From Firmicutes bacterium HGW-Firmicutes-7 (GTDB lineage Bacteria; Bacillota; Clostridia; Lachnospirales; Vallitaleaceae), in contig PGZO01000029.1 of NCBI GenBank assembly GCA_002841375.1, positions 1-40,000 on the forward strand: DNA of 40,000 nucleotides. The letters are read 5' to 3'. Shown piece by piece: positions 1,078-16,281 of this stretch. Numbering within the stretch: the stretch's first letter is position 1; every line of letters starts with the position of its first letter. A program made the translations under genes and the position numbers. The notes beneath the pieces were generated by a model. The model saw only the letters and a list, made by a program, of their open reading frames with translations. It ran no database searches and was not told the origin of the DNA.

Positions 1078-1407
1078 TTATGTATTGTTATTAGAAAGAA
1101 ATTGTTCTACTGTTTGTCCATCTTTTGTTAACTCTATTTTTATATATTTAACTGCAGACTCTATCCATTCTGTTATTTTGCGCTGAGGAACAAATATTCT
1201 AATAATTAAAGGAAGCTTTTCATATATTACGGTCATAACTTCAATGAATTTCAATTTGCCAGCACCTGATCCCCAATTGATTTCAGCTTGGATTACTAAG
1301 CCTAAGATAATGTTTTTTACCATCCTTTTTTGCCCGAAGTACCATAATAAGCCAAGCGTGCAAATAAAGATAATTGATACTATGATATTTAATGTTAATC
1401 TATCCAT
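1078..1407 (-). CDS. holin, LL-H-family-like
   Basis: 109 aa with a single N-terminal TM (IIVSIIFICTLGLLWYF), then AEINWGSGAGKLKF...WIESAVKYI, which resembles LL-H type holins. It lies immediately downstream of the endolysin and abuts it. Confidence 0.55.
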   Translation of the reverse strand: MDRLTLNIIVSIIFICTLGLLWYFGQKRMVKNIILGLVIQAEINWGSGAGKLKFIEVMTVIYEKLPLIIRIFVPQRKITEWIESAVKYIKIELTKDGQTVEQFLSNNNT

Positions 1408-2082
1408 TTATGTTCCCAATCCTTTCTTTTTCAATAGTTGATAGAATCTGTACAAGTAACACATTGTTCTAATTTCTTCTTCCGAATCAACTTTACCATC
1501 ATTAATTCCATTGGCTACAGACCAATCCCACGCTTCTTTCCCCCATTTAGGGACCTCAATAACTTTAACTTTTGTTTCCGCCACATTTAACATCTCCATT
1601 GTTGGATTAGATGTTGTGATCACCTCCGGTTTAATCTCTCTTAAAAACGGCTCTGGATTAATGGATCCTATTGTTTTACTATCTGCTGTTATTTCAAACG
1701 ACACTGTATTGCCCTCAATAAGTCTGAAATGCAAATGTGCAGCTGTTGATGTTCCTGTATTACCCATTTTGCCTACTACTTGACCAGCCTTAACAGTTTG
1801 TCCTACTTTAAGGGTTAGTCCTTGCATGTGCCCGTAAAGTGTGCAAAATCCGTCATGTTGAATTGCTATGTAATAACCATAACCTTTCGTTACTCCACCA
1901 CCATTGATTTTACTAATAATTACGATACCGTCAGCTACTGCATAGAGGTTATCACCTTCAACACCAGGCTTAATTCCTCCGATGTCTACCCCATCGTGAA
2001 AAGCTCCCCAACGTGGTCCAAATGGGCTTGTAATCCTTTTTGAATCTGTTGGCCATCTATTTAATTTAATCATATTTAACAC
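1408..2082 (-). CDS. M23/LytM-family zinc metallopeptidase (endolysin)
   Basis: Carries the HDGVDIG (HxxxD) and GNTGTSTAAHLHF (HxH) motifs. It occupies the lysis position at the distal end of the tail operon. Confidence 0.85.
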   Translation of the reverse strand: MLNMIKLNRWPTDSKRITSPFGPRWGAFHDGVDIGGIKPGVEGDNLYAVADGIVIISKINGGGVTKGYGYYIAIQHDGFCTLYGHMQGLTLKVGQTVKAGQVVGKMGNTGTSTAAHLHFRLIEGNTVSFEITADSKTIGSINPEPFLREIKPEVITTSNPTMEMLNVAETKVKVIEVPKWGKEAWDWSVANGINDGKVDSEEEIRTMCYLYRFYQLLKKKGLGT

Positions 2083-2131
2083 CTCAAATCTTTATCATTT
2101 TTTAATGAAGATATACTAATGGAGTAAGGTT

Positions 2132-2236
2132 TTAAGTAATTCCTAGTATATAAAAGATAAATAAAGTCACTAAAGCAAAATAAATAGTTACGCCTATAAA
2201 TATCTTTTTAGAAAGCTCAATCTTCTTGTGTTTCAT
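2132..2236 (-). CDS. possible 34-aa single-TM peptide in lysis cassette
   Basis: Hand translation gives MKHKKIELSKKIFIGVTIYFALVTLFIFYILGIT. GAAGG lies ~9 nt upstream, and the ORF overlaps the end of 2217..2522 by 20 nt. Below the track cutoff. Confidence 0.25.
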   Translation of the reverse strand: MKHKKIELSKKIFIGVTIYFALVTLFIFYILGIT

Positions 2237-2522
2237 CTTCAATAGCCTTCTCGTGTGTCATCTTACACTTTAATTTGATTAACCCAATTTCTTCTGAATT
2301 CCTATCAATCCTATTGTCAAAATCAAGCAACATAGTTTCTATCTTAAGAAGTCTTTCGTTGGTTTGAAATTGCTGATTATTAATATTGTTTAATGATATG
2401 GCAATCTTTGAATAAATCTTAATAATCGCAACGATTGTTATAACTAGGGTACTTAATATCGATAAAATTGCTAATATCAAATTAAAATTTATTGTTACAG
2501 TCATAAGCATCTCCTTCCTCAT
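2217..2522 (-). CDS. membrane-anchored coiled-coil protein (XhlA position, inverted topology)
   Basis: 101 aa with an N-terminal TM (LILAILSILSTLVITIVAII) and a heptad-like C-terminal half. It lies between the fibre accessory genes and the endolysin. Confidence 0.5.
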   Translation of the reverse strand: MRKEMLMTVTINFNLILAILSILSTLVITIVAIIKIYSKIAISLNNINNQQFQTNERLLKIETMLLDFDNRIDRNSEEIGLIKLKCKMTHEKAIEDETQED

Positions 2523-2578
2523 TAAAAGAGAGCTATAAAAGCTCTCTAGTATGGTAATATTTACTTCGCAATATGTTC

Positions 2579-2716
2579 CTATGCAGTTATTAAGTTTTGT
2601 CTGTCTTTTTCAATTAAATAAACCTCTATACCATCCTTTAGATCGGGACGTTTTCCAATAACGTAATCATATGTATAAGCTTCATCAATAATTCTTTGGC
2701 CTAAATAATTCGCCAT
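2579..2716 (-). CDS. 45-aa small phage protein (XkdX position)
   Basis: Hand translation gives MANYLGQRIIDEAYTYDYVIGKRPDLKDGIEVYLIEKDRQNLITA. A strong AGGAGGT lies 8 nt upstream, and the ORF is tightly packed after 2720..3007. Confidence 0.45.
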   Translation of the reverse strand: MANYLGQRIIDEAYTYDYVIGKRPDLKDGIEVYLIEKDRQNLITA

Positions 2717-2719
2717 AAT

Positions 2720-3007
2720 TTACATACCTCCTAATTCATCTAGTGCTCGCTTCATAAGTTCCACGTCTGTTTTAAGCTTAGCTAACTGGTCTTGCTCTGG
2801 CATAACGTGATTCTCATTAACTATAAACTGTCCGTTAACGTATTTATGCGTCTGCGGTGCTACACCTTGGAGTATCTCGGTAACTTCCACAATATCAAAT
2901 TCTTCAGCATAAATAACACGATCATCTACTAAAATACCGTCCTCAATAATTTCTGTTGTAGTACAAATATCAATTATTATACCTTCTTCATTTAGTAATA
3001 GTTTCAT
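2720..3007 (-). CDS. tail-fibre accessory/chaperone-position protein (XkdW position)
   Basis: 95 aa and acidic, lying 3 nt after the tail fibre gene. The call rests on position only. Confidence 0.45.
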   Translation of the reverse strand: MKLLLNEEGIIIDICTTTEIIEDGILVDDRVIYAEEFDIVEVTEILQGVAPQTHKYVNGQFIVNENHVMPEQDQLAKLKTDVELMKRALDELGGM

Positions 3008-3010
3008 GGT

Positions 3011-4732
3011 TTACCTCCAATCATAAAATTTTTTAATTTGACTACTTGTACCATTTTGCAATGCTAACCCATGTGCCCTTTTTGAATATTCAATATAGGA
3101 CGCTTCTAACGTGTCATTTGTTTGTTTATATACTGCTATAGTTCTATTTGTTGCAATTGCCGCTAGTTTTCCCCAATGAGGTGTAGTTAGCAACGAAGTT
3201 TCAAGGTCTTTTGTTACAGTAGTGTCTCCAATACTTAAAACAGCTAAAACATTTGAGTTAGAATGAGTAATCAGCACTTTATCTATATCCATTAAAACAG
3301 AAGATAAGACAGCACCATTATTAAATGACGTTGCTGCTACAACTAATGTAGTCTGAGGTGTTATAACATTCCCGCTTATAGCCAATAATAACGCTGTAGT
3401 ATAATAACCATTCTGAGAATTACATACTAATAACAAAACCTTGGTTGCACTAATAGCTACTAAAGAGCAGAATTGTGGTTTAATAGCAGTAACACCAGTA
3501 ATCGTATAAGCAGTACCTTTTGATATTGTATTAGATACTGTATTGACAGTCAAAACTACCGCTTTTGTCTGATACATCAATAGTAACTTATTAGTATTAA
3601 ATAAAATAACATCACCAGGTGTAGAAGCCACCGCTTCAATTACGAGTGTGTACCATGCACCCAAGGTTGTTCCTGAAGCAGCCAGTATTAGTGAGGTGGT
3701 GTAATTGCTATTTAATCCATCTCTATACACAACTAAAGCTTTATCTGTAGTTACTTTAGTTATTACTAATTCATACATTCGTCCCCCTGTAATTTGTATG
3801 GTACTACCTTTTGTTACAGCATTAGTTGTTGTATTAACAGTCAAAACCATGCCCTGTCCACCACCTACAGATGAATCAAATGCTAATATAGCTTTGTTAG
3901 TACTAATTAATGTTAATCCCACAGTAGCAATGCCAGCAGCTGTATCACATGTAAGAATACCACCTTTAGTTATAGATGTTTCACTTACAATTAACACTAA
4001 GGCATAAAGATAACTACTACTCCCTAGGTATGTTACTAGTACTCTGGTATCATCTATAGTTACTGCATTAACCTGACTAGTCATGGCTATTAAATTTTTC
4101 CCAATAACTCTTTCTTCTATTTTTCTTGATACTGGATTAGCCTTATTGTTAATAAATTCTACGAGGTCACCTGCATTGATAGTATTACCTGCTTCAATTT
4201 GATATTCAGCTATTAGGGCATTTATTTTTGCCCCTTCTCCTCTAGGGGCTAATACAAAAAAATCATTTGTGGCATCATATATACCTCGATAAAATCCCGG
4301 TTCTAAATCACCGCTTCCTAATACCGTTCCATCAGCTCCCCTTAAACTTTTTACGCCTGTTTCAGTGGCATTAATAGTTACTGCTCCAGTATTAGCTGCT
4401 GTTTGTTGCCATTCAACGTAATTTCCAGTTATAAGCGTAAAGCCTAGCTTATTGATTGCTATAGCATTTGCTGTGCCTGTGTTTTGAAGGTATTTAATGC
4501 TAGACAGTTGTGTGGTAACTGTATCAACACTTGACTGACTTGCAGCTCCTGCAAGTTTCTCTTTTTCTTCAGTTGTATAGTCATTAGTTGAAAGACCTTT
4601 ACCATCAACTTTTTCTACTCGGTTTCCCATAGCTTGGTCAATAATATCAAGGTTGGCGTTTATTTTTTCTATATTATAATTCTCGTTTGGATCATCTTTT
4701 GTTAGACCTATATTAGTAGTTTGTGTAGCCAT
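3011..4732 (-). CDS. tail fibre / receptor-binding protein
   Basis: 573 aa. The N-terminus TNIGLTKDDPNENYNIEKINANLDIID and the GKGLSTNDYTTEEKEKLAG motif are typical of Firmicute phage fibres. The C-terminal ~390 aa is a repeated blade-like motif. Confidence 0.8.
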   Translation of the reverse strand: MATQTTNIGLTKDDPNENYNIEKINANLDIIDQAMGNRVEKVDGKGLSTNDYTTEEKEKLAGAASQSSVDTVTTQLSSIKYLQNTGTANAIAINKLGFTLITGNYVEWQQTAANTGAVTINATETGVKSLRGADGTVLGSGDLEPGFYRGIYDATNDFFVLAPRGEGAKINALIAEYQIEAGNTINAGDLVEFINNKANPVSRKIEERVIGKNLIAMTSQVNAVTIDDTRVLVTYLGSSSYLYALVLIVSETSITKGGILTCDTAAGIATVGLTLISTNKAILAFDSSVGGGQGMVLTVNTTTNAVTKGSTIQITGGRMYELVITKVTTDKALVVYRDGLNSNYTTSLILAASGTTLGAWYTLVIEAVASTPGDVILFNTNKLLLMYQTKAVVLTVNTVSNTISKGTAYTITGVTAIKPQFCSLVAISATKVLLLVCNSQNGYYTTALLLAISGNVITPQTTLVVAATSFNNGAVLSSVLMDIDKVLITHSNSNVLAVLSIGDTTVTKDLETSLLTTPHWGKLAAIATNRTIAVYKQTNDTLEASYIEYSKRAHGLALQNGTSSQIKKFYDWR

Positions 4733-5268
4733 TATGTTATCACTCCTTCCCTTAGTTGGCTATGCGTGTATGCGCTTAGCTGCTCGTGAGTATAAACACT
4801 CAATACCTGATGAGTTCTATAAATATATTCAAAGTCAAAGCTAAGATGTGCCGGTTTAATTTCCTCAATAGTTAGCGTTAAATCTGCCATATTACATGGT
4901 ATACCCAAGGTCCCTACAAACTTAACAGTGAAGCGGTAATTTGAATTATCTTCTATGACCTCAACTTCTCCGTTACTATAGGCCTTTGCAACATCTACTA
5001 TCATTTGCTTTGTAACAGTTCCAATGCCTCTTATCTTTGCTTTTATTCGTTCACGCCTAAACGTATTACTCTTTGATACATCAACTTCTAAACCATAAAT
5101 AGATTCATATCTACTTAATAAGGCTGTTGCAGTTTCAATAAAACATTGATCTATGGTTTCATCAAAGTTGGCAGCAAGAATATTAATGTCAGTACTTAGT
5201 ATGTTCTGTAGCTCTCCCATTGTAGTATTTTCAGCATAATAGCTAGGCAAAAGCGTCATTAAGTCCAT
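4732..5268 (-). CDS. XkdU/YmfQ-like baseplate-distal tail protein (DUF2313-like)
   Basis: 178 aa. LLPSYYAENTTMGELQNILSTDINIL...LSRYESIYGL resembles the DUF2313 family, and the gene follows baseplate J. Confidence 0.7.
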   Translation of the reverse strand: MDLMTLLPSYYAENTTMGELQNILSTDINILAANFDETIDQCFIETATALLSRYESIYGLEVDVSKSNTFRRERIKAKIRGIGTVTKQMIVDVAKAYSNGEVEVIEDNSNYRFTVKFVGTLGIPCNMADLTLTIEEIKPAHLSFDFEYIYRTHQVLSVYTHEQLSAYTHSQLREGVIT

Positions 5269-5269
5269 A

Positions 5270-6289
5270 CTACACCTCCTCTGTCAATGTGATAGTTCCA
5301 GCTATCGGCATTTCAGTATTCAAAATTGTAACGTTAGCAGTACCACTATTAATTAGCAAATTGGCGTAATCCGCTACACCTGGTGAGGATAGTAACATAC
5401 TTCCAATCTTTGCACAGCTTACACTATAGGATTCAAATACAGTTTCCTTAAGATATGATGTAAATACGGTTGTAAACTTTGATACCACATCTGCAAATAA
5501 CATTGTACCATCTAGTATTATATCAGCACTAACAGAGATCTCTTTGCTTGTAGGACTGTCTACTGTGACGGTGGATCCTATTGGCCTTACTATCTCAATA
5601 TAATCATAAACCGTTGTTTCCAATCCTTCATCTATAGCCATATTGTTATCTACTACCATTACCTTTACAGTACCTGGTCCATCCCACAAAGGAAACACTT
5701 TCGCATCTCCTACACCTGGTACTTCAAGCGCCCATTCTTTATAATGATCAGTATTACCTGATGTACTAGGTACCTGTATTTGCAAATTGAACCTCTTTCT
5801 TAGATTTTGGTCTGTTTCTTCATCAGAACCGCTAGTAATAATATCTGTTAAAGTGGCGGTAACACCTCCTACATTGTCAATGTTATCAAGTACTCCAGCG
5901 TAAGTATTGCCTATATCACCTAATTGCTCACAAGTAGCACTGTATTGATTTTCAGAAAGTAGCGCTGTTATTTCATACGTTGTATCATTTAAACCCCATC
6001 TCACACCAATGCTAACAGCTCCGGAAGTAGTAATTTTTCTAACTGCATATGTAGCAGCTTTTCTTGTAATCCCGTAGTCAGCGACCACACGATCTAAATA
6101 TTCACCGACTGCAGTATCTCCTGAGACTAGATCAATAAAATTGTTCAAATTAAAATAGTTCTGGGTTAGTTGATAAGCACAAGGAGCCAATGCGTCATAG
6201 ATTACAGATCCCTCTCTTTTGTCAACATCATTTGTAACACGGCTTAACATATCGCTTAATATGTTTTCATAAGTCATATTTTCAAACAC
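5270..6289 (-). CDS. baseplate J-like protein (XkdT-like)
   Basis: 339 aa. EGSVIYDALAPCAYQL and SGSDEETDQNLRKRF are baseplate-J-like motifs, in conserved synteny. Confidence 0.8.
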   Translation of the reverse strand: MFENMTYENILSDMLSRVTNDVDKREGSVIYDALAPCAYQLTQNYFNLNNFIDLVSGDTAVGEYLDRVVADYGITRKAATYAVRKITTSGAVSIGVRWGLNDTTYEITALLSENQYSATCEQLGDIGNTYAGVLDNIDNVGGVTATLTDIITSGSDEETDQNLRKRFNLQIQVPSTSGNTDHYKEWALEVPGVGDAKVFPLWDGPGTVKVMVVDNNMAIDEGLETTVYDYIEIVRPIGSTVTVDSPTSKEISVSADIILDGTMLFADVVSKFTTVFTSYLKETVFESYSVSCAKIGSMLLSSPGVADYANLLINSGTANVTILNTEMPIAGTITLTEEV

Positions 6290-6684
6290 TAGATATTCAC
6301 CTCCTTACTTATGGTTAGTTCTCCATAAATACTTATTACATCAAATTTACAAAGCATTTGGTCACCATTAACAGTAATCTTAAAATTATCAACACTTTCA
6401 ATTCTGCTGTCCTGGAGCAAACACTCCCTGATTCTTCGTTTTATTTCTATTTTTACATAAATTTGATCTTCACCAATAAGACTTTCAAGTTCAACCCCAT
6501 AAGAAAAACTATATATTGGATACTCAAATTTTTCTGTATTTAGTACTTTAAATATAGCTTGTTCTAATGCTATCAGATTGTCAGCATAACCTTGAATCTT
6601 ATTATCTGATAACTTGTATGTCCTAGATGTTTCAAAGTCTTCCATAATCTTTAGATTAACGTCAATTTGGCTGTTTGGTATCAC
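6289..6684 (-). CDS. XkdS-like baseplate protein (DUF2634-like)
   Basis: 131 aa. Size and synteny fit, and it shares an ATGA-type overlap junction with neighbouring genes. Confidence 0.6.
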   Translation of the reverse strand: MIPNSQIDVNLKIMEDFETSRTYKLSDNKIQGYADNLIALEQAIFKVLNTEKFEYPIYSFSYGVELESLIGEDQIYVKIEIKRRIRECLLQDSRIESVDNFKITVNGDQMLCKFDVISIYGELTISKEVNI

Positions 6685-6911
6685 TTAACCACCTCCAGTA
6701 TATAAAATTGTTGTCCTCCATGATTTCTTAAAAGCCTTACTTTGTTACCAACAATTACAGAGCTTTTGAGGTTTCCGATTACAAGCTCATTAGGGATGGT
6801 AAGCTTATCACTAATTTTTATTCCACTGCTTGTAACCGTTCCTAATATGATATCGCACAAGCTTACATTGTTTAGATAGTTGTTTACTATTGTTTTTATC
6901 TCGTGTATCAT
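6681..6911 (-). CDS. XkdR-like small baseplate protein (DUF2577-like)
   Basis: 76 aa with 4-nt overlaps on both sides, in XkdQ-R-S synteny. Confidence 0.5.
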   Translation of the reverse strand: MIHEIKTIVNNYLNNVSLCDIILGTVTSSGIKISDKLTIPNELVIGNLKSSVIVGNKVRLLRNHGGQQFYILEVVK

Positions 6912-7837
6912 ACCATTACCTCCAAACTCATTGTGTGATTAGGTAGAAATTTGTGAGTAACTTCTTTAACAATAAGCCTTTTATTTAGTTCTATATCTGA
7001 TATCAAGCCATAAAAGCTAGCTCCAGCACAGATACTTGTATCTCCTAGGCACTCTAATCTTAATGTCTCTTGCTCTTTATTATAAAAACTAAGTAACTTT
7101 TCAGCCTTTTCATTCGCCTGTGAAGCGTTCGTTTTACTATCCATTACTTCAAAGTACTGTAATGTCCCAAATTTTGAAACAGAATTCACATCGTTTTTAA
7201 CGTGAAAATTATAGGTATCCTTGATACGTATTTTAACCTGATTATAAAAGCCGTCATCTATGGACTTCTCGTATCCAAAGTCATATGCAAGACTTTCATC
7301 TCCAAGAATCAAATTAAGCTGTAGCTCTTCCAAGTATCTAATAGCAATACTTCCAAATTCATCACGCAAGCAGTATTTCTTACCTGTGTCTACCAAAGTA
7401 TCACTTATAGTAGTATAAATGATATCTAACCACGTTTTATCTTCATGTACTCTTGTTTTAGGTAATACATATTTGGTGTCAGTAATCGAGCCTTTCTTAA
7501 GTCGTAATTGATTACACATTCTCGTAGTAAGAGTTGTAATGGAATCATCTTTAACAACTATTGTATCTTTTGCTTTGCAATACCTTAGTTGATCATACGC
7601 CGTAACACTAATTTCTTTACCTTTGTTTCTGCTGACTCTAAATACAAAACCATAAAAAATATTAGCATTATTATATTTAAAACTTACAATACTACCATTC
7701 TTTATTACTAAATCATCATTTATATATTTGAATTCCAGCTTGCTACATCCATTATTTAACACATCTTTGTAAGATATATCTGTTACGAGCTCGCTTATGT
7801 CATATGTCGTTTCATCAACTTTTATTAAAAATTCCAT
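6908..7837 (-). CDS. XkdQ/YqbQ-like baseplate hub-associated protein
   Basis: 309 aa, lying between the LysM protein and the XkdR-like gene as in PBSX-type tails. Confidence 0.65.
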   Translation of the reverse strand: MEFLIKVDETTYDISELVTDISYKDVLNNGCSKLEFKYINDDLVIKNGSIVSFKYNNANIFYGFVFRVSRNKGKEISVTAYDQLRYCKAKDTIVVKDDSITTLTTRMCNQLRLKKGSITDTKYVLPKTRVHEDKTWLDIIYTTISDTLVDTGKKYCLRDEFGSIAIRYLEELQLNLILGDESLAYDFGYEKSIDDGFYNQVKIRIKDTYNFHVKNDVNSVSKFGTLQYFEVMDSKTNASQANEKAEKLLSFYNKEQETLRLECLGDTSICAGASFYGLISDIELNKRLIVKEVTHKFLPNHTMSLEVMV

Positions 7838-7847
7838 AACATCACTC

Positions 7848-8522
7848 CTAACTAGGTATTGTTAGCTTTTGTCCAGGGTATATTAGATTTGCATTCTTAA
7901 TTATGCTTTTATTTGCATTATATATTTTAGAATACTTAGATCCATCACCGTAATACTTTTTTGCAATCGCCCACAAACTATCACCACTTTTAACAACATA
8001 GTATCCAGTGTTTTTAGGATTGGTTATGGTGCTAGTAGGTATAACTAGCTTAGTAGCTAATGCTTCATCTCCACTATTGACGGTAACAACATTAAATTGC
8101 TTATCGTATTTTTTATATTCTAGGAGCTTAAAAGAAATATATTTATCTCCTTCCTCCCCTGCCTTTTCAGTAATAGTAAGACTTTCTATTAATACCTCAG
8201 TGACAATATCATCTTCCACACCATTATGAGCAATAAAACCTACTGAAGTAAGTTCATTTCTCCACTTTTCAAAAAGCGTCAGGTAATAATCTGCTGCTTT
8301 AAAATCCCCTGCTGTTTCTACATAAATATGCGCTTTACTTGGAAACTCACATTCAAAGCTATACTGTTTCAGTTCCATGTGAACTGGAACTGCTATTTGA
8401 CCGCTCTTAAGTACCTCGTACTTTTGTATTGCTTGAGTACTCGTTATCTCTAATTGTTCTGGATTAGTAGGGAGTCTATAAGTTTTATCATCATAGTCAA
8501 AAAATACGGCATAATTACTCAT
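7848..8522 (-). CDS. LysM-domain tail protein (XkdP-like)
   Basis: Carries a C-terminal LysM motif, YVVKSGDSLWAIAKKYYGDGSKYSKIYNANKSIIKNANLIYPGQKLTIP. The gene follows the tape measure. Confidence 0.85.
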   Translation of the reverse strand: MSNYAVFFDYDDKTYRLPTNPEQLEITSTQAIQKYEVLKSGQIAVPVHMELKQYSFECEFPSKAHIYVETAGDFKAADYYLTLFEKWRNELTSVGFIAHNGVEDDIVTEVLIESLTITEKAGEEGDKYISFKLLEYKKYDKQFNVVTVNSGDEALATKLVIPTSTITNPKNTGYYVVKSGDSLWAIAKKYYGDGSKYSKIYNANKSIIKNANLIYPGQKLTIPS

Positions 8523-9895
8523 TAATCATAAACCCCCTCACCTGACATTGAAATTTCTTCTTGCAATATTTTATTAATTCGTCCTGCTACCTTATCAGCA
8601 TCTGCCGTTTCGTGTACATCCCCAAATGTTATACTAATATTAGGTGCCAAGGTATTACTTGCTATCTTTGCAACATAATCTCTTTCAGCCACATCTTTAA
8701 GATATTGCAAATCCTCGTCTGACATATCAACTTTAACAGCACCATTTATTCCAGTTCCTTGGACTGTTTTTGGCTCGCGCCTAGAGCCATCACCGCTTAA
8801 ATCTGCTTCACCTGCCCCTGTCATTTTATCAGTTAAAGAGCTAATCCCATCACCAATCTTATTAGCAACATTCTTTCCTGTATCACTGCCTTTGGTATAA
8901 GCGACAGAGTAATCCATAAATTCTTTAGTTTTAACAAATTCCTTCAGATCAGCTTCACTCTTGATATTTGCAGATTCAGCTGCAAATTTATTTTTTAATC
9001 CGGTAATATTACTTGTAATATCAACCTTGACACCAGGTATTTTATTTAAAAGATCTTCAATGCCTTGAGCCATAGTCTCAATAAATCCTAATACATTAAC
9101 CATTAGATCGTAAAATAAAGTTTGTACCGAAGCTATGGGATTACTAAATACATTTCCAAAGAAGTTGATAAAAGCAGCAACAGCGTTCCATATATAAACA
9201 AAGCCATTATAGAAATGTCCAACAAATGTACCAACAATACCACCAATTACTCCAAAAATCTCTTCCCATGTGCCTCCAAGACTCGTTATAGCAGTAATTA
9301 CAAGAACAATAATCCCTATTATGAGTGTTAATGGCCACGCAGCTACTAGCCATGCTGCAGCGCTTGCTAAGATTGAAGGTATCATAGCTAAGATTGGAGG
9401 TAACATACCCCATAAACTTGTTAATATCCCCGCAAGTAGAACAGTTCCAACAAAAGCTAACATGGGTCCTATGATACTCCATCCATTAATAATACTATCT
9501 ATTAACCACACTGCTGCTTTTGCTACTATATTAAATCCTATAATTAAGACGTCAATAAACTGTTGAAAGCCATCAGTATTAAATAACTCACTCATTTTAT
9601 TCTTAACGGGTGCGAAAGCTTTTTGAACTTTACTCCCAATCTCTTCCATTACCTCATCAGGTACCAAACTAGTCACAGCCTTGCCTACTTTACTTAAGAT
9701 TCCGACTAAGCCACCAATTTGGCCAAGTGCATCCTTAGCACTTGCTCCTGAGGCTTCTAGCTTTTTATTCAACGTATCCGTAGAGCCACTAGCATTTAAT
9801 ATCTTTTCAGATGCTTCATCTGTTTTTTTATTAACCGCATCTATAGTGGTTGTATAACCATCAAATAACAAAACCATTGCTGAGAGAGTTGCCAT
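8522..9895 (-). CDS. tail tape measure protein (short, 457 aa)
   Basis: Sits after the chaperone. It has helical N- and C-terminal parts and a long central Gly/Ala/Ile-rich hydrophobic block, typical of Firmicute tape measures. Confidence 0.8.
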   Translation of the reverse strand: MATLSAMVLLFDGYTTTIDAVNKKTDEASEKILNASGSTDTLNKKLEASGASAKDALGQIGGLVGILSKVGKAVTSLVPDEVMEEIGSKVQKAFAPVKNKMSELFNTDGFQQFIDVLIIGFNIVAKAAVWLIDSIINGWSIIGPMLAFVGTVLLAGILTSLWGMLPPILAMIPSILASAAAWLVAAWPLTLIIGIIVLVITAITSLGGTWEEIFGVIGGIVGTFVGHFYNGFVYIWNAVAAFINFFGNVFSNPIASVQTLFYDLMVNVLGFIETMAQGIEDLLNKIPGVKVDITSNITGLKNKFAAESANIKSEADLKEFVKTKEFMDYSVAYTKGSDTGKNVANKIGDGISSLTDKMTGAGEADLSGDGSRREPKTVQGTGINGAVKVDMSDEDLQYLKDVAERDYVAKIASNTLAPNISITFGDVHETADADKVAGRINKILQEEISMSGEGVYD

Positions 9896-10482
9896 TTATC
9901 GTCTCCCTCCCTTCGCTTTTATTTTTCTTGCTTCTTCTTGTTCTTTTTCACATCTTGTTTGGATACTTGCATATATAAAAGCCTTCTCCCTCTCATTCAT
10001 TGTAGCTAGCGTAGAAGGGAGAATATGTAGTTTTTGTAGTGCAAAGTGCGCTAAGTTAAATTCAGCGTCACCTTGCTTGATTAGTTTTTTACTTCTTCTA
10101 TATCCTCGTTAATATCCTGATCTAATCCGCTTAACTCTTGTACAGCTTGTGCTAGTTCTGCATACTCACCAACATACAGCATTTTCTGCAGCAAAGAAGA
10201 GTCTCCAAGAACACCATACGCCTTTTGTAATTCAGAACTAGTTAAATCCGGAAATATAACTGCACTAGCAGTCATTGCCTGTACATAATCAGCTCTATTA
10301 AAGGTTTCTACCCCTTTTTTATCTTTCTTAGTATATTTCTTGATCAGATAGCAGTTTTCTTCCTGAGTGACTGGTTTGATAACAAATGGAACAGGTTTTC
10401 CATCCTCCATAAATCTATTTGAAACAATAACCTCTTTATTTTCTACTAGACATGGATTCAAAAACGCTTTTAATGAACTCAT
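9896..10482 (-). CDS. tail assembly chaperone, -1 frameshift-extended form (G/GT analogue)
   Basis: A -1 slip at A_AAA_AAC (10090..10084) opens a 62-codon frame, KLIKQGDAEFNLAHFALQKLHILPSTLATMNEREKAFIYASIQTRCEKEQEEARKIKAKGGRR. That frame has no start codon of its own near its 5' end, and it stops (TAA 9898..9896) directly against the tape-measure ATG. Confidence 0.65.
10081..10482 (-). CDS. tail assembly chaperone, short form (XkdN-like)
   Basis: 133 aa with an acidic C-terminus, lying between the tube and tape measure genes. It ends ...GTA AAA AAC TAA. Confidence 0.75.
   Translation of the reverse strand: MSSLKAFLNPCLVENKEVIVSNRFMEDGKPVPFVIKPVTQEENCYLIKKYTKKDKKGVETFNRADYVQAMTASAVIFPDLTSSELQKAYGVLGDSSLLQKMLYVGEYAELAQAVQELSGLDQDINEDIEEVKN
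10084..10090 (-). promoter_or_regulatory. programmed -1 ribosomal frameshift slippery heptamer A_AAA_AAC
   Basis: In the zero frame this reads GT[A AAA AAC] TAA, which fits the X_XXY_YYZ rule. Confidence 0.6.
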
Positions 10483-10543
10483 ATAGTTCCTCCTTAAATA
10501 TTTGTTAGATAATTCAAGCTAGAAAAGAGAGCATAATGCCCCC

Positions 10544-11017
10544 TTATCTGTAATTTTCAGGTAAATTAAAATAACTTAATCCTTCCAAATCATCAAAAGT
10601 GAAGTCAGTTTCGATAGTAATTGGATCATCTGATTGATCGTCTAAATTGCAAATTGGTATTGTTTTTAATAATACATTGCTCATTACGACTTCTTGTGTA
10701 CCAATCGTAGACTGATCATCTAGATTTTTAACTTGCAGTTTAAGACCCCCAAATTTACCGTTCTTAATATAATCAATCGCAAGCTTAAGCATATCAGAAT
10801 TCATAAAATACATAGTCATACTTCCTGTACCCTCTGCCCCAATAACTTTATGCTGCGTCATTCTATGTCCTAGCATATTTCTTGTTTGTACATTTAGATC
10901 TAATTGAGCTTTTAAACTAGATATTTCGAATAACTCTCTATTAGCTCCTTCAATAGTGATAAATGCTGTACCCTCTTTAGAGGATATCGTATCTGCTAAT
11001 CTTACATAATTGTCCAT
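10544..11017 (-). CDS. tail tube protein (XkdM-like)
   Basis: 157 aa, immediately after the sheath gene. SKEGTAFITIEGANRELFEISSLKAQLDL resembles XkdM-type tube proteins. Confidence 0.8.
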   Translation of the reverse strand: MDNYVRLADTISSKEGTAFITIEGANRELFEISSLKAQLDLNVQTRNMLGHRMTQHKVIGAEGTGSMTMYFMNSDMLKLAIDYIKNGKFGGLKLQVKNLDDQSTIGTQEVVMSNVLLKTIPICNLDDQSDDPITIETDFTFDDLEGLSYFNLPENYR

Positions 11018-11034
11018 GCTTTAATCCTCCTTTC

Positions 11035-12078
11035 TTAGAATAAATTTACAGTAATATACATCTTTTCAACTGAATCTACCGGTTGAATATAACATTCAAT
11101 AACAACTGCATCTGAATCAATTCCTTTTGTTACTGTTACATCTTCAGGCAGAAAATTTTGTATAGCAGACAATCTCTGTAATTCATTGAAGTATTCAATT
11201 AAAGTTGCCCTTAGCAAAGACCTGCCATCGGTATTGTTATTAACTTTACCGATATAGTTTGATTCGAAAATCTCAACGATATCATTATTGATTCCATCAA
11301 GTGTACGAATAACCTTATTCTTAGTAAATTGTTTGCCCTTATCAACTGAAATGGTGGTTAAAGAGTTAATATCATATACTGCTGTAACATTTTGTACGGT
11401 ATCAACTTTAAAGATGAACTTACCTTCAGTAATAGCTGTTTCCATTTCGTTTTTGGTCATTCTTGGCATTACATCAACGGCCCCTACATACTTCTGACCT
11501 GTATTAGATTTATTAATGTTTGCACCTGCTGTAACACCAGCCACCCAAGCTGTAACTTGTGCTGCTGTTAGCGTAGTTGCATCTGACAATTCAATGCTCT
11601 GTGTAACGTTAATAACGCCTTCATAATCTCCTACATAATCAGCAAGTACTGCCTGTACCTTAACGCCTTCATCCTCTCTCATAGCTTCAATCCATGTTGC
11701 GATAGCAAGCTTATTCGCATCATAGGTTACACCTTCATAGGGATACGCCAAAGTGTTAAATATTAATGTTCTAAGAGCTACTAATGAAGTTGTAATTGCT
11801 TCTGCATTATGTGCTATACCTAAATTATAAACAAGCACTGTTTTAGCACATTTTAACGCTTCATTGACAAGTAACTTATCAGCAGCTGTAGATCCTGTTG
11901 GATAATCATTTTCTGTTGCAGTAATTGTGTAAATATCCCCAACAGCTCCTACACTCATTTCTTGTAAAAGAATTACAATGCCTCTTTCCCCAGGTGTAAT
12001 GGAAAGCGGAGCATTCGTCTTGATATTAATGTAAGCACCTGGTAAAACCTTATTTTGACTTGTCCATGTTCCTGCCAT
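11035..12078 (-). CDS. contractile tail sheath protein (XkdK-like)
   Basis: 347 aa. The N-terminus MAGTWTSQNKVLPGAYINIKT is typical of XkdK-type sheaths, and a tube gene follows. Confidence 0.85.
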   Translation of the reverse strand: MAGTWTSQNKVLPGAYINIKTNAPLSITPGERGIVILLQEMSVGAVGDIYTITATENDYPTGSTAADKLLVNEALKCAKTVLVYNLGIAHNAEAITTSLVALRTLIFNTLAYPYEGVTYDANKLAIATWIEAMREDEGVKVQAVLADYVGDYEGVINVTQSIELSDATTLTAAQVTAWVAGVTAGANINKSNTGQKYVGAVDVMPRMTKNEMETAITEGKFIFKVDTVQNVTAVYDINSLTTISVDKGKQFTKNKVIRTLDGINNDIVEIFESNYIGKVNNNTDGRSLLRATLIEYFNELQRLSAIQNFLPEDVTVTKGIDSDAVVIECYIQPVDSVEKMYITVNLF

Positions 12079-12079
12079 G

Positions 12080-12568
12080 TTATTCCTCCGTTCTTGTGGT
12101 TATTTGTGGTTGCTGCATCTTAACATAGTTTTGTTCAATCATTTCTGAATAATTGATATCAAAGGTAAAATGCAACACGTTATCTGTGATGGTTACTTTC
12201 TTATTTAGGACCCGATAAGAATTAATAAGGTCAAATCCTCTAAACAATGCTAATTGGACCGCTAAGCAATCTGCTCTAATCTCCGTAGTACCCTTATCAC
12301 TGAAATAGGCAACATCAAAAGAAAGTAAGCTTTTGAACTTAACATTCATTCGTTTGCTATAATCCTGTCCAATAAGTACAATCAAGAAAGATGGCTTATT
12401 GAGAGGAATATCCTCTTCATAAATTGTATACTCAGGATAAAGTTCTAATAATTTATCTACTATTGCTTGCCTAACACTACTTATCATACTTCTATTCACC
12501 CTCTCTACTTCTTTCTTAAACTCATTTGAAAGTTCTTTTTCAACAACTTTAATTGTATGATTTAACAT
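12080..12568 (-). CDS. putative tail completion/terminator protein (XkdJ position)
   Basis: 162 aa. It is the only ORF between the late regulator and the sheath, and sits 1 nt from the sheath start. The call rests on position only. Confidence 0.35.
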   Translation of the reverse strand: MLNHTIKVVEKELSNEFKKEVERVNRSMISSVRQAIVDKLLELYPEYTIYEEDIPLNKPSFLIVLIGQDYSKRMNVKFKSLLSFDVAYFSDKGTTEIRADCLAVQLALFRGFDLINSYRVLNKKVTITDNVLHFTFDINYSEMIEQNYVKMQQPQITTRTEE

Positions 12569-12653
12569 TGTATATAAGTTTTTAACCTAATATCATATTA
12601 ACACGACCAAAAACCCAAATCCACGTCATCATTACGTCAAACCCTATAAAGCC

Positions 12654-13208
12654 TTATTTTATCAGCTTTGTAGCTCCTATTCCAAATAAAAGCACACTCA
12701 TTTCTTGTATCATGTCAAGCTCATAACGGTCAGCTGTTCGCTCAGAAATATTCAATTTTTCGGATGCTATAATTATTTTATCTCCTCTAGGCAACTTACA
12801 ACTATTAGGATCTAAATATAATATATTGAGTACCTCAAACTTTTCAGGTGTACCCGCTTGAATCATGCTGTTTTGTATCACACTTATACACGAATCAATA
12901 TGCCGTACCATTACATAGGTCCGTGATTTAGTCCTTACAATAGATTCGATGATTATATTCTCCTGTAAGGCTTCTACTAGTTCACCTATGCCAAGCATAT
13001 ACACATCATTACAGAGATCATCAAGCGCATTACCACAGTGTTCTTTAAGGTCATTATAATGTTTAAGAAGCACTCTTGTATTCCTAAACACAGTTTTCTT
13101 CTCTGTTTTCTCCTCTTGCTGTTTGTATAATTTAACTGCTTCTTGGGCGACCTCTAAAGCAAATTCCCTATTTATCGTATTGGTGTTTTTCTTCTGCACT
13201 AATATCAC
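12654..13208 (-). CDS. ArpU/sigma-like late-gene transcriptional regulator (Xpf position)
   Basis: LLKHYNDLKEH near the N-terminus and a C-terminal region-4-like HTH (LNISERTADRYELDMIQEMSVLLFG). The true start is probably the second GTG at 13199, which lies 9 nt after GGAGA. Confidence 0.45.
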   Translation of the reverse strand: MILVQKKNTNTINREFALEVAQEAVKLYKQQEEKTEKKTVFRNTRVLLKHYNDLKEHCGNALDDLCNDVYMLGIGELVEALQENIIIESIVRTKSRTYVMVRHIDSCISVIQNSMIQAGTPEKFEVLNILYLDPNSCKLPRGDKIIIASEKLNISERTADRYELDMIQEMSVLLFGIGATKLIK

Positions 13209-13354
13209 TCTCCTATTTCGTATTTATTAATTCTTGATTTAACACAGTAATTACCTTATCCTGAATTATAATTTATCCTCTAAGTCCATTAAAACGTCCT
13301 TATCAACCCCAGCTCGAACCACTAAATGGTGAATTATAACCTTCTAAAACCTTT

Positions 13355-14224
13355 TTAATCCTCCTCATTATTTTCGTCTAATACCATTTCCATAGCCTTT
13401 TTTTCTATCTTATCAAAGTCATAATTACGCTGTTCAAAGTTGATAAACTTGTTGGTACTAGACTTGTCCCTCTTTTCATTTTTTTTAGATTTTGAATTAT
13501 CAACGTCACCTCTAGTCTTATAATTATTATTTTTCCATGCCAAACAGATAGTTTCTATATATTTCCATGATCTTTTATTGTAGTCATTTGCTTGTTCAAT
13601 GGCATAACAGACTAAATCTTCACCAATATCATCAACTGCAACCTTTATCTTTTTAATTATTGATGGTGGTATGGTTCCTATGTTCTGCTCATAATACTGA
13701 AATGGATTATGTTTAGTAGTAGATAATATATTTAGTTCTTCTTCTAGTTCTTCTTCTAGTTCTTCTTCTAGTTCTTCTTCTAGTTCTTCTTCTGCTACGT
13801 TACTCTCCGTTACTGTAACGTTACAAGTAACGTTACTATTTATTAATTTTTGTCTATGCTTTGCAACCCTTATTCTTGTTTGTTCCCTAACCTTTTCTAA
13901 TGTTTCTATGTTCTGATGCTTTTCCCAATTTGACACATAGTACGTATTATTAATAATTTCAATCATTTCAAATCTTTCAAATACTTCAAGTGCCATCTTT
14001 ATAGTCATTAATGGTCTGTTAAATATACTACTTAACATTTCATTGTTGTATTGTATCCTATCATTTAGCATTAGTAGGCCACTTCTATTTGTTCTTCCAG
14101 CTAAACAAAGTATCTTTAACCAAATTACTAGTAGGGTATCAGATTCAGGCATATTTTCAATTAATCTTATTTTTTCATCGTCAAATATATTAGTTACTAT
14201 TTTTATCCATTTAACATCTGCCAC
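13355..14224 (-). CDS. phage replisome organiser / DnaD-domain protein
   Basis: The N-terminus VKWIKIVTNIFDDEKIRLIENMPESDTLLVIWLKILCLAG matches the replisome-organiser N-domain. The C-terminal part is DnaD-like (FQYYEQNIG...RSWKYIETICLAWKNN). Confidence 0.8.
   Translation of the reverse strand: MADVKWIKIVTNIFDDEKIRLIENMPESDTLLVIWLKILCLAGRTNRSGLLMLNDRIQYNNEMLSSIFNRPLMTIKMALEVFERFEMIEIINNTYYVSNWEKHQNIETLEKVREQTRIRVAKHRQKLINSNVTCNVTVTESNVAEEELEEELEEELEEELEEELNILSTTKHNPFQYYEQNIGTIPPSIIKKIKVAVDDIGEDLVCYAIEQANDYNKRSWKYIETICLAWKNNNYKTRGDVDNSKSKKNEKRDKSSTNKFINFEQRNYDFDKIEKKAMEMVLDENNEED
13733..13792. repeat. perfect 12-bp tandem repeat x5 (tagttcttcttc), encoding (EEEL)5
   Basis: Counted directly. 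It lies in the linker of the DnaD-like protein. Confidence 0.95.
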
Positions 14225-14239
14225 TTTATCACCTCAGTA

Positions 14240-14791
14240 TTATTTGTGAACTAACCAAACCCTTTTCTGCTGCACCCCCCACTCTTGGGCTTGATCCAAA
14301 TTAGATATGTAAAGGTCAATACAATTACCCTTAATCCCACCGCCTTTGTCCTGTACAAACCTATATCCAACATCTTCTATGTACACCCATGTATTGAGAG
14401 GTAACACGTCCCAATCTGCAGCTATAGTCAAATCTTCTTGAACTGTTGCTCCTGATGCTGTTATTCCAAACGCTGGATCACCAGGATACTTGCCTGTAGA
14501 TTCAAATCCTGCCGTATAGGCTGTAATCTTGAATTCTCCTATTTCATCAAGTATCCAACTATCACAAGGAGTGCTAGTGTCGACATTACAAAAGCAAGAG
14601 TCAGGGCTTTTAAAAATATCACCTTCAATTGAAACGCTTGTATCATTTTCTTTCTTATGTTCGTAAGATTGTCCTCTCGATTTTCCATAAACAAACCCTC
14701 CTGCTATAAAAATTAGTAGTGTAGCCATAATTAAAAGAATCGTTAGTGCTTTATCTATTTTTCGTATAGTCATAGAATTCAGTTCGAACAC
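14240..14791 (-). CDS. membrane-anchored 3D-domain protein (MltA/RlpA-like fold)
   Basis: N-terminal TM (ALTILLIMATLLIFIAGGFVY) plus FKITAYTAGFESTGKYPGDPAFGITASGATV...IAADWDVLP...GGGIKGNCIDLY, a 3D-domain pattern. Confidence 0.75.
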   Translation of the reverse strand: MFELNSMTIRKIDKALTILLIMATLLIFIAGGFVYGKSRGQSYEHKKENDTSVSIEGDIFKSPDSCFCNVDTSTPCDSWILDEIGEFKITAYTAGFESTGKYPGDPAFGITASGATVQEDLTIAADWDVLPLNTWVYIEDVGYRFVQDKGGGIKGNCIDLYISNLDQAQEWGVQQKRVWLVHK

Positions 14792-14972
14792 CTTCCTTTC
14801 TGCTTATGTACATAGCACATTTATAACCTAATGATGAAATATTCCTTACTAATACTCTGCAATAATTAGTTCCCTTTTTGTTCCAGTCACAATTATTACA
14901 TGATTTTGGTTCAGAGGTTTTACCTTCCATTTTCACTTCACAATCTTTCTGTATTGTGTCGCCAGTTAACAT
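14751..14972 (-). CDS. small Cys-rich protein (73 aa)
   Basis: The track ORF is 14751..15032. The ATG at 14972 lies 2 nt past the cro-like stop, with GGGTGGG upstream. The protein contains CNNC...C...C. Confidence 0.35.
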   Translation of the reverse strand: MLTGDTIQKDCEVKMEGKTSEPKSCNNCDWNKKGTNYCRVLVRNISSLGYKCAMYISRKEGVRTEFYDYTKNR

Positions 14973-14976
14973 ATTA

Positions 14977-15246
14977 TCAACCCACCCTTTGTGTCTTATT
15001 CGACACCTCTTCTCCGTAAAAAATTTCATCAATAGTTAATGGAGACTCGCCTTTTTTTAATAATTCTTTATTAATATAATCTCTAATAATTTCACATTCA
15101 TCCAGTCCCCAACCTTGCACTCCATTCTCCTTTTTACTGTAATGGCTACGAGAAATACCAATTAGTTTAGAGAAATCGATTTGTGTAACATTAATTTTCT
15201 GTCTCAAATATCTAAGCTTTAAATATTTAATTTTTTTAATTTTCAT
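14977..15246 (-). CDS. cro-like XRE-family HTH regulator
   Basis: 89 aa with the HTH LRQKINVTQIDFSKLIGISRSHYSKKENG. It is the first gene of the leftward operon and is divergent from the cI-like gene. Confidence 0.75.
   Translation of the reverse strand: MKIKKIKYLKLRYLRQKINVTQIDFSKLIGISRSHYSKKENGVQGWGLDECEIIRDYINKELLKKGESPLTIDEIFYGEEVSNKTQRVG
14991..15006. promoter_or_regulatory. candidate operator GTGTCTTATTCGACAC
   Basis: GTGTC-N6-GACAC palindrome within the 3' end of the cro-like gene. Confidence 0.3.
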
Positions 15247-15264
15247 AACATCAGCTCCTTTAAT

Positions 15265-15280
15265 GTGTCTTATCCGATAC
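15265..15280. promoter_or_regulatory. candidate operator GTGTCTTATCCGATAC
   Basis: Imperfect palindrome just downstream of the leftward -10. It is related to the sites at 14991 and 16282. Confidence 0.35.
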
Positions 15281-15284
15281 CGTT

Positions 15285-15312
15285 ATTATATCACCCACCC
15301 ATTATTTGTCAA
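15285..15312 (-). promoter_or_regulatory. leftward (lytic-direction) sigma-A promoter
   Basis: The minus strand reads TTGACA-16 nt-TATAAT, with TG one base upstream of the -10 (TGATATAAT). It lies 39 nt upstream of the cro-like ATG. Confidence 0.6.
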
Positions 15313-15343
15313 TCACTAAAGTACATTATTGGAAACTTTTTTA

Positions 15344-15371
15344 TTTACAATATGATATTTTAGTGTATAAT
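15344..15371 (+). promoter_or_regulatory. rightward promoter for cI-like gene
   Basis: TTTACA-16 nt-TATAAT on the plus strand, back-to-back with the leftward promoter. Confidence 0.5.
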
Positions 15372-15405
15372 TAACATATAATAAGTGACTGTGGAGGCTA
15401 TTCAA

Positions 15406-15762
15406 ATGAATGTATATGGTGAAAATTTAAAAAAACTTAGAAGAGAAAAAGGATCTAGTCAAGAAGAGATTGCTAGATTTGCAGAAATTAAATCTAAATC
15501 TACGATATCTAAGTATGAACGTGGTGATATAATGCCTGCATTAGACGTTGCCAAAAAAATTGCGGATTTCTTTGGCGTATCAGTTGACTCTATGACTATA
15601 AGAACTCAAATTATAGAAAACACTATTACAGAACGAAACTCAAAAGAACTTATTGGGCTTCCTAAGGAGTATATTAATGCAATTAAAATAGCTTATAACA
15701 ATAACATTTCTCCTGAAAAATTAATTGAACTCATTGACTTTACAACTAAACTAAGAAAGTAG
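15406..15762 (+). CDS. cI-like XRE-family repressor
   Basis: HTH LKKLRREKGSSQEEIARFAEIKSKSTISKYERG. The track starts at GTG 15385, but the ATG at 15406 has GGAGG 8 nt upstream. Confidence 0.8.
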   Translation: MNVYGENLKKLRREKGSSQEEIARFAEIKSKSTISKYERGDIMPALDVAKKIADFFGVSVDSMTIRTQIIENTITERNSKELIGLPKEYINAIKIAYNNNISPEKLIELIDFTTKLRK

Positions 15763-15770
15763 GTGTGATC

Positions 15771-16271
15771 ATGAGTATTTATCAGCGTGAAAGTGATAAA
15801 CGGTGGGTAGTCTGTGTTAAACTACCTTCTGAGGATGGTAAGCGAAAAAGAAAATACGTTTATGCTAATTCTGAAAAAATAGTTAAAAGACATAGCAACT
15901 AATCCTGCAAATATGTATCCCTTCCTAAAAGCGTTACTTATAAGCCTGAAATTTATAACGAGGAAAAATTTAATAGTCTTTTAGATACAGTTAGGGGTAC
16001 ATTTGACGAAATACCGATATTGCTTGCTGGTTGTGTTGGGTTAAGACGTGGAGAAATATTTGGATTAAGATGGAAAGATATTGACTTTAAGGCTAGAACG
16101 ATATCTGTAGTTGAAACTGTCGTTGCGTGGCTTAAAGTTAAAAAACCAAAAACTGAAGCCAGCGAAAGATTAGGCCATGCTGATACGATGCACGAAGATG
16201 CTGCAAGTAAGTTAGAAGCAGCTTTTACAAAGAAGTCTGACAGCCATTTTGACAGCCAAAAAACGAATTAA
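15771..16271 (+). pseudogene. tyrosine integrase relic (in-frame stop plus internal deletions)
   Basis: A 43-codon arm-type N-terminus (MSIYQRESDKRWVVCVKLPSEDGKRKRKYVYAN...) runs into TAA at 15900. The same frame continues with catalytic-domain fragments (LLAGCVGLRRGEIFGLRWKDIDF, then directly ERLGHAD). About 166 codons remain, against the ~350-400 expected for an intact integrase. Confidence 0.8.
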
Positions 16272-16281
16272 CATATGCAAC

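Follow-up and report, generated by a model that had tools for sequence, protein, structure and literature searches.

In a 40,000-nucleotide stretch of contig PGZO01000029.1 (the window hereafter; G+C ~33%) from 'Firmicutes bacterium HGW-Firmicutes-7', a groundwater Firmicute (unclassified Bacillota) represented by a metagenome-assembled genome, we found a compact contractile-tail gene cluster that is probably a chromosomally fixed, prophage-derived, domesticated R-type tailocin locus. Judging from its sequence, we would put the probability of this reading at roughly 60%. The element spans ~15 kb of the window (1078-16421), with its structural genes on the minus strand. An original prediction, drawn from the letters of the window, had already taken it for a tailocin, and this reading is supported by a complete tail, a head that is absent without debris, an intact genetic switch, a decayed integrase, and a junction between a late regulator and the first tail gene that recurs elsewhere.

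Tail module and missing head genes

The open reading frames (ORFs) were assigned by Pfam and PHROGs profile searches (Table 1). All ORFs of the original prediction were recovered where it had placed them, and the complete Xkd-type tail set that it claimed proved to be a gap-free minus-strand series of assigned genes from the tail terminator to the fibre. The frameshift proposed for the tail assembly chaperone could also be located: a slippery A_AAA_AAC at 10090-10084 is followed by a 62-codon -1 frame, which stops at a TAA abutting the ATG of the tape-measure gene, and the layout is the classical G/GT-type arrangement. The true start of the terminator gene is probably M28 at 12487, where a ribosome-binding site is present and from which the product would be 135 amino acids (aa) long, like those of its relatives. 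The tape measure matches only positions 283-705 of its 706-residue PHROG profile. Tail protein lengths equal those found in head-bearing relatives, with the tape measure being shorter.

The ORF between the late regulator and the sheath, a single one as previously noted, is the terminator gene and nothing else, and the profile search for head or packaging folds assigned the two ORFs upstream of the sheath to a tail terminator and to a late-regulator type. No terminase, portal, capsid or head-tail connector gene was among the Pfam and PHROGs matches of the element. When 26 terminase, portal, MuF, scaffold, capsid and connector proteins of related phages were compared by tblastn with all 40 kb, the best match had an E-value of 0.02 over 29 residues; head genes are therefore absent from the 40 kb, where no pseudogene of them is left either. 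The regulator-terminator junction is also present in an independent assembly (L002), and it fits the spacing of the NCBI locus tags, with 13 genes from CVV02_15160 (fibre) to CVV02_15225 (regulator), the NCBI proteins of HGW-Firmicutes-7 that match the window at 99-100% identity. We infer that loss of the head genes by deletion brought the late promoter region directly before the first tail gene.

The integrase had been described as a relic, and so it is: ~167 codons remain, interrupted by an in-frame stop and shortened by large deletions inside the gene. The core-binding domain is mostly gone, 'KPKTEASER' is fused directly to 'LGHAD', and neither HxxR nor the catalytic Tyr region is present in the relic. 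As an internal control, this gene of ~1.1 kb has been reduced to ~167 codons while ~14 kb of regulatory, tail and lysis genes are without lesion. No excisionase was recognised in the element, which appears to be fixed in the chromosome and not self-mobile.

Regulatory genes and the late promoter-like element

The early region bears out the predicted cI/cro-like switch and DnaD-like protein, in that two divergent helix-turn-helix (HTH) genes and a protein with Phage_rep_org_N and DnaB_2 domains were found. Between the two HTH genes, the minus-strand promoter is a perfect TTGACA-16-TATAAT with a TG extension (15312-15285), the plus-strand promoter of the repressor gene reads TTTACA-16-TATAAT (15344-15371), and a 22-nucleotide inverted repeat lies at 15314-15335/15344-15365. 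A tandem 12-nucleotide repeat of five to six units (13733-13793) encodes an acidic (EELE)n tract between the two domains of the DnaD-like protein; no helicase, loader or primase gene stands beside its gene.

The last gene before the tail module encodes a protein of 184 aa that had been called an ArpU/sigma-like late regulator. Its late-regulator position and its affinity to sigma-like proteins held, while no match to ArpU was found. The protein itself has no Pfam or NCBIfam match; a search of 5.8 billion proteins returned only three diverged relatives, and an exhaustive HMMER search gave a family of 290 representatives. Among the aligned members of this family, Sigma70_r4_2 was matched in 21 of 66, DUF1492 and Sigma70_ECF in 11 of 66 each, and Phage_antitermQ, weakly, in 8 of 66. 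The predicted structure is all-helical (predicted confidence, pLDDT, 87), and its only sensible fold match is region 4 of SigL (3hug), with a probability of 0.8-0.9, a target TM-score (a measure of fold similarity) of ~0.78 and a non-significant E-value of ~2. The regulator appears best described as a member of a sigma-region-4/DUF1492-like late-regulator family. Its 42% identical homologue in locus L038 belongs to a complete phage, where it is encoded between RusA and the small terminase, the canonical slot for a late activator. A 63% identical homologue lies on a short contig (L039) with genes for an ImmA-HTH protein, the regulator, a tail terminator, sheath, tube and chaperone; this is a second headless cluster with the same regulator-terminator junction and a different, 438-aa sheath.

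Immediately 3' of the regulator gene, a non-coding, promoter-like element contains the box AATGATGACGT at 12633-12623 and an extended -10-like sequence, CGTGTTAATATG, at 12605-12594. The consensus, AATGATGACGT followed at a fixed spacing by an extended -10-like (C/G)GTGTTAATATG, is shared by all four loci compared (the window, L038, L039 and L040), and the element occurs only once in the window, at 12594-12633. In L038 and L039 it is followed on its 3' side by a strong intrinsic terminator (in L038, with a fold of -40.9 kcal/mol and a z-score of -6.6); at the same site, the window has no comparably stable hairpin (z-score -1.9). The layout of element and terminator in L038 and L039 recalls, by analogy, that of Q, PR' and tR' in lambda. 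The regulator may be either an activator or sigma factor, or an antiterminator.

We infer the following order of expression, particle formation, lysis and killing. The locus would be kept silent by the cI-like/cro-like switch with its divergent consensus promoters, and derepression would turn on an early operon encoding cro, the 3D-domain hydrolase, the DnaD-like protein and the late regulator. The latter would then act on the promoter-like element just downstream of its own gene to give one 11.5-kb late transcript, encoding the complete contractile tail, the fibre with its accessory proteins, the M23 peptidase and small membrane proteins. Headless tails would assemble and be freed by lysis of the producer cell, and related bacteria that carry the fibre receptor would be killed by sheath contraction and membrane puncture, in the manner of R-pyocins and diffocins.

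Table 1. Features of the element, with the equivalents of its promoter-like element in related loci
Feature	Coordinates	Strand	Basis or remark
109-aa protein	1078-1407	-	one transmembrane segment; phrog_15303
Endolysin candidate	1408-2082	-	Peptidase_M23
101-aa protein	2217-2522	-	N-terminal transmembrane segment and coiled coil; holin/XhlA-like candidate by position only
45-aa ORF	2579-2716	-	second small ORF after fibre
orf95	2720-3007	-	small ORF after fibre
Tail fibre/receptor-binding protein, 573 aa	3011-4732	-	N-terminal fibre motif; predicted structure
Mu Gp48-like wedge protein (Tri1, XkdU-like)	4732-5268	-	Pfam
Baseplate_J wedge protein (Tri2)	5270-6289	-	Pfam
Sheath initiator (gp25-like)	6289-6684	-	Pfam
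Probable central spike (XkdR position), 76 aa	6681-6911	-	weak DUF2577 match; phrog_579
Baseplate hub, YqbQ/XkdQ type, 309 aa	6908-7837	-	YQBQ, E 3e-91
LysM tube initiator ('tube tail', XkdP-like)	7848-8522	-	Pfam LysM
Tape measure, 457 aa	8522-9895	-	phrog_1068, E 9e-66
XkdN-type tail assembly chaperone	10081-10482	-	Pfam; with -1 frameshift extension, 9896-10482
Tail tube	10544-11017	-	DUF2001
Contractile sheath, 347 aa	11035-12078	-	three sheath domains (Pfam)
Tail terminator/collar (XkdJ position)	12080-12568	-	Phage_tail_terminator_8 (PF20765)
Conserved promoter-like element	12577-12653	-	immediately 3' of regulator gene; non-coding
Equivalent element, L038	10547-10740		after stop codon of regulator homologue
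Equivalent element, L039	1869-2060		after stop codon of regulator homologue
Equivalent element, L040	3293-3336		after stop codon of regulator homologue
Late regulator (reg184), 184 aa	12654-13208	-	phrog_1558
DnaD-like replisome organiser	13355-14224	-	Phage_rep_org_N and DnaB_2
Membrane-anchored 3D-domain (MltA-like) cell-wall hydrolase candidate	14240-14791	-	3D domain, E 1e-13; PHROG peptidase families
cro-like HTH_3 protein	14977-15246	-	Pfam; first gene of early operon
Divergent promoter/operator region	15247-15384	.	consensus promoters
cI-like HTH repressor candidate, 125 aa	15385-15762	+	HTH_31/HTH_3/HTH_19
Tyrosine-integrase relic	15771-16271	+	single frame, stop after codon 43; weak Phage_integrase Pfam match
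Attachment (att)-like repeat, 33 nucleotides	16389-16421	+	resembles T-arm and acceptor 3' end of a tRNA; 118 nucleotides downstream of integrase relic

Related loci, known systems and alternative explanations

A scan for the sheath in one genome per GTDB species yielded 33 loci from diverse Clostridia hosts, ~30 of them informative. Sheath identity to the window is 68-78% for most of these relatives and 49% for two, and from the terminator through the Gp48-like protein, gene order and lengths are conserved in all of them; the early genes of the window are not common to them. About two thirds of the informative loci are full prophages with head genes just upstream of the terminator gene. In the 14 loci with full upstream sequence, genes for small and large terminase, an SPP1-type portal, MuF, scaffold, a Gp13-like capsid and connectors stand directly before the terminator gene, and head or connector genes are also present in five shorter or more distant loci (L015, L018, L029, L035 and L036). 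The head modules of the 14 were identified by Pfam in L007, L013 and L005, and by tblastn in the rest.

Eleven of the ~30 informative loci are headless (L006, L009, L016, L019, L022, L023, L025, L026, L027, L028 and L033), among them those of the cultured Anaeromicropila populeti 743A and Anaerocolumna aminovalerica DSM 1283. Upstream of their tails lie host genes, including those for LysR, radical SAM, DegV and Mn catalase, together with genes for small sigma-like regulators. The latter belong to at least three unrelated types, all differing from that of the window, and the end points of the deletions vary. A neighbour-joining tree built from six tail proteins joined end to end, which is star-like and carries no support values, shows headless and head-bearing loci interspersed; this, together with the differing end points, suggests several independent head losses that spared the whole tail. 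In four headless loci, of Anaerocolumna and others, a lone Phage_scaffold homologue is encoded directly before the terminator gene (L025, 5867-6322; L026, 9006-9575; L027, 8832-9389; L028, 8728-9384).

Toxin-type sequences were encountered in several of these relatives. In Anaeromicropila populeti, the headless tail has a gene for a WHH/colicin-DNase-type nuclease toxin (L023, 5828-6652) close by on its upstream side. In intact relatives, MuF-like minor head proteins end in toxin-type domains, such as Ntox50 in L013 (3795-5321; E 6e-22), and that of L005 (3877-5613) has a sub-threshold RelA_SpoT-like match at its C-terminus (E 2.4e-4; 21.8 bits against a cut-off of 27). The most similar sheaths in deposited phages, those of Clostridium phage Makh22 and the phiCT phages of C. 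tetani, reach no more than 42.5% identity. The short record of Makh22 was considered as a headless candidate and rejected, since it is a partial genome with a major head protein.

The closest tails belong to Clostridia myovirus prophages, such as those of Clostridium sp. Cult2 (L007) and Caloranaerobacter azorensis DSM 13643 (L013), with ~55-80% identity from the terminator to the Gp48-like protein and up to 78% in the sheath. These prophages differ from the cluster in their head and connector genes before the terminator and in their early regions. PBSX, a defective prophage (phibacin) of Bacillus subtilis, and the Yqb genes of the skin element have an Xkd-type module in the same order as the cluster (terminator at the XkdJ position, K, M, N, O, P, Q, R, S, T, U, fibre, small ORFs, lysis). 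The late genes of PBSX are under the control of a small sigma-like regulator (Xpf) whose gene lies just before them, analogous to the role proposed for that of the cluster. PBSX has kept its genes for terminase, portal, protease and capsid, and it packages host DNA in pieces of 13 kb; unlike PBSX, the cluster has no terminase, portal or capsid genes that tblastn could detect.

Experimentally established R-type tailocins of Gram-positive bacteria are, to our knowledge, few, with diffocin alone widely recognised. Diffocin is likewise a headless contractile-tail locus of a Gram-positive anaerobe (Clostridioides difficile, CD1359-CD1376), and its collar, sheath, tube, tape measure, tube tail, hub, spike, sheath initiator and Tri2/Tri1 wedge map 1:1 on the cluster (PMC10996793). 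The homology is distant overall (E 1e-6 to 3e-42), with the order kept. Among proteins of solved structure, the sheath is matched by DSY3957 (5e-84), Lin1278 and then diffocin CD1363 (1e-32), and the tube by XkdM of PBSX (1.5e-18, the best solved structure) and diffocin CD1364 (1e-6). The Baseplate_J protein aligns over its full length with diffocin Tri2 (CD1371, 2.6e-42), and the LysM protein matches gp61, the tail tube initiator of a C. difficile phage (1e-12), and diffocin CD1367 (3e-8). The cluster differs from diffocin in that the 3D-domain (MltA-like) protein and the M23 peptidase are encoded by separate genes, in the length of its tape measure (457 against 817 aa), in its 573-aa fibre with a predicted beta-propeller, in the cI/cro switch, DnaD-like gene and integrase relic that it has kept, and in its host.

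Clostridial R-type particles are widespread; clostocin O, boticin P and the particles of C. beijerinckii are examples (PMC10538166). Induction yields clostocin O, the C. beijerinckii tailocins and R-pyocins as headless contractile particles, which are released by lysis and whose killing specificity is set by the fibre (PMC10538166). In solventogenic Clostridium, the corresponding loci are ~40-kb prophages with complete head modules, and capsid genes seemed to be conserved in Gram-positive tailocin loci (PMC10538166). The cluster, in which the head module is lost as in R-pyocin loci, and its 11 headless relatives are counter-examples to capsid retention at the genomic level, as far as their sequences tell. 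We tentatively suggest, at slightly less than even odds, that one PBSX-like myovirus tail lineage of anaerobic Clostridia has repeatedly been turned into compact tailocin loci that are headless and have the layout 'late regulator - late promoter - tail - lysis', which would make up about one third of the species-representative loci and would constitute an undescribed pattern. Such repeated conversion, if true, would contradict the impression given in the literature that capsid genes persist in Gram-positive tailocin loci, and would offer many natural combinations of tails and receptor-binding proteins. The headless relatives in cultured Clostridia provide a route to ask how often, and by which deletions, prophages become tailocins. 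The cluster itself opens no new category; the most interesting by-products are the repeated loss of heads across Clostridia and the conservation of the regulator-promoter unit. As a compact 15-kb headless PBSX-type cluster with an identifiable regulator-promoter unit and a modular receptor-binding protein (a predicted beta-propeller), it is nonetheless a candidate for heterologous production and fibre engineering.

Several observations weigh against the tailocin reading. The hub of diffocin, CD1368 (581 aa), carries lytic-transglycosylase and endopeptidase domains (PMC10996793); that of the cluster is without this peptidoglycan hydrolase domain, as no hydrolase domain was found in it by Pfam, and it had no match in a sequence search of the PDB. 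The tape measure is unusually short, against 565-817 aa in most relatives, and would predict an unusually short tail, of ~70 nm by rough estimate. Neither the 101-aa protein nor the other small membrane proteins match a holin family, and no peptidase domain was detected by Pfam on the repressor. The host is uncultured, and the left end of the element is not visible, as the contig ends there. The comparative set was found through an intact sheath and is biased toward intact tail modules, with decayed ones being missed. The known copies of the element are only those that are 99-100% identical, and the nearest tail relatives are 78% identical and in other contexts; because of this gap (99-100% or at most 78%), purifying selection since the head loss is not measurable, and the ratio of nonsynonymous to synonymous substitutions (dN/dS) is uninformative. 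LexA/Cheo boxes occurred in the search as often as expected by chance, with none in the switch region. Finally, an intact DnaD-like gene is kept though dispensable for a fully domesticated tailocin.

The last four of these observations would also fit the main alternative, a recently truncated, functionless prophage, in which a single deletion took the head and the rest has not yet decayed, so that neither particles nor a benefit would result: selection is not demonstrable from near-identical copies, a partial replication module is kept together with a phage-type switch, no LexA box was found as an inducing signal, and the headless relatives were ascertained through an intact sheath. Against such a remnant stands an integrase that has taken several independent lesions beside 14 kb of tail, regulatory and lysis genes that have taken none. 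Moreover, the deletion took out exactly the head and connector genes and joined the late promoter element to the gene that opens the tail module; L039 and at least 11 other genomes show the same outcome, with differing end points and regulators. We consider a functionless remnant unlikely, if by no means negligible.

It is improbable, in our view, that the element is still transmissible, with head genes left of the window in the same att-bounded element or supplied by a helper phage, as in a tail-encoding satellite. The left boundary is indeed not visible in any assembly (position 1 of the window is 42 nucleotides from the end of the source contig, and all assemblies found stop ~40 nucleotides left of the window), the window does not contain the intact tRNA that should be the partner of the att-like repeat, and a replication-initiator gene is kept. 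In all head-bearing relatives and in the phage with the regulator homologue, however, the head genes are found in the interval from the late regulator to the terminator, never behind the lysis genes. The phage that carries a homologue of the holin-like 109-aa protein argues likewise: after its lysis cassette come two small ORFs and then, on the reverse strand, an ORF of 394 aa to which the integrase relic can be aligned, beyond which there are no ORFs of structural-gene size. In addition, the integrase is dead, and no small terminase or pac-related gene was found in the window by Pfam or tblastn.

An extracellular contractile injection system of the Afp/PVC/MAC type, delivering protein effectors, would share with the cluster a chromosomal headless contractile apparatus, but was rejected as very improbable, since Pfam, PHROGs and NCBIfam revealed none of its hallmark genes (AAA+ ATPase, PAAR/VgrG-type spike, Afp16-type cap, effector or toxin), the traits present are of phage type (frameshifted chaperone and tape measure, XkdP/Q/R/S/T/U baseplate, lysis cassette, cI/cro switch), and the closest relatives are temperate myovirus prophages.

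Receptor binding, lysis and flanking sequences

Only the N-terminal 40-60 residues of the fibre are widely shared (Mtd_N/PTR-type fibre motifs); the remainder has few homologues, at 29-31% identity. Its C-terminal domain (residues ~203-551) is predicted to be all-beta (pLDDT ~85), and a Foldseek search with it returned seven-bladed beta-propellers, including LGI1 EPTP, Sec12, WD40 proteins and the PLL lectin (E down to 8e-11); this domain is accordingly modelled, and here predicted, as a seven-bladed beta-propeller. The closest homologue of the fibre belongs to a siphovirus tail module, where its gene follows those for Dit and a Gp37-like protein and precedes a 99-aa ORF homologous to orf95 (E 7e-14). 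Because the two are paired in a siphovirus tail module too, the receptor-binding protein and orf95 appear to form a cassette that moves between tail types, and orf95 is plausibly a fibre chaperone. No relative of the 45-aa ORF that follows was detectable.

For the 109-aa protein, a metagenome scan found a 79% identical homologue encoded directly 3' of the endolysin gene in an unrelated siphovirus, which, in this single scan, has only the holin-like gene and the C-terminus of the endolysin in common with the window. This position directly after an endolysin suggests that the protein belongs to the lysis module. A scan of viral contigs with the same protein gave no match.

The att-like repeat, probably the right boundary of the element, moves that boundary from 16271, where it had been placed, to 16421. 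A second, degenerate copy lies at 18007-18039 as a 91% identical direct repeat (0 matches expected by chance) and is followed by an intrinsic terminator. ARAGORN found no tRNA gene in the window, and an Rfam search of the repeat gave no tRNA or tmRNA; since the window has no tRNA gene, the intact tRNA and the left att copy presumably lie past the contig end. The two repeats enclose a 1.6-kb segment with one ORF of 296 aa (16539-17429, minus strand) that has no match in Pfam, PHROGs or PADLOC, and the segment looks like a second mini-island, or a remnant of one, at the same attachment site.

At the contig end, downstream of the lysis genes, an 80-aa ORF (99-341, minus strand) matches the colicin/pyocin immunity proteins of Pfam below threshold (E 0.0025; 18.3 bits, with the cut-off at 21.2), and is adjoined by a gene for a 69-aa HTH_3 protein (523-732, minus strand). 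A PADLOC search of the flanking unknown ORFs found no defence systems. The metagenome contig k141_3557 in ENA (52,504 bp) is identical to the window. Right of the element lie host genes for a C39-like peptidase, HSP20, spore coat protein F and ABC transporters, and a purine riboswitch (Rfam RF00167, 68 bits) is present outside the element, upstream of host genes, at 26569-26671 on the minus strand.

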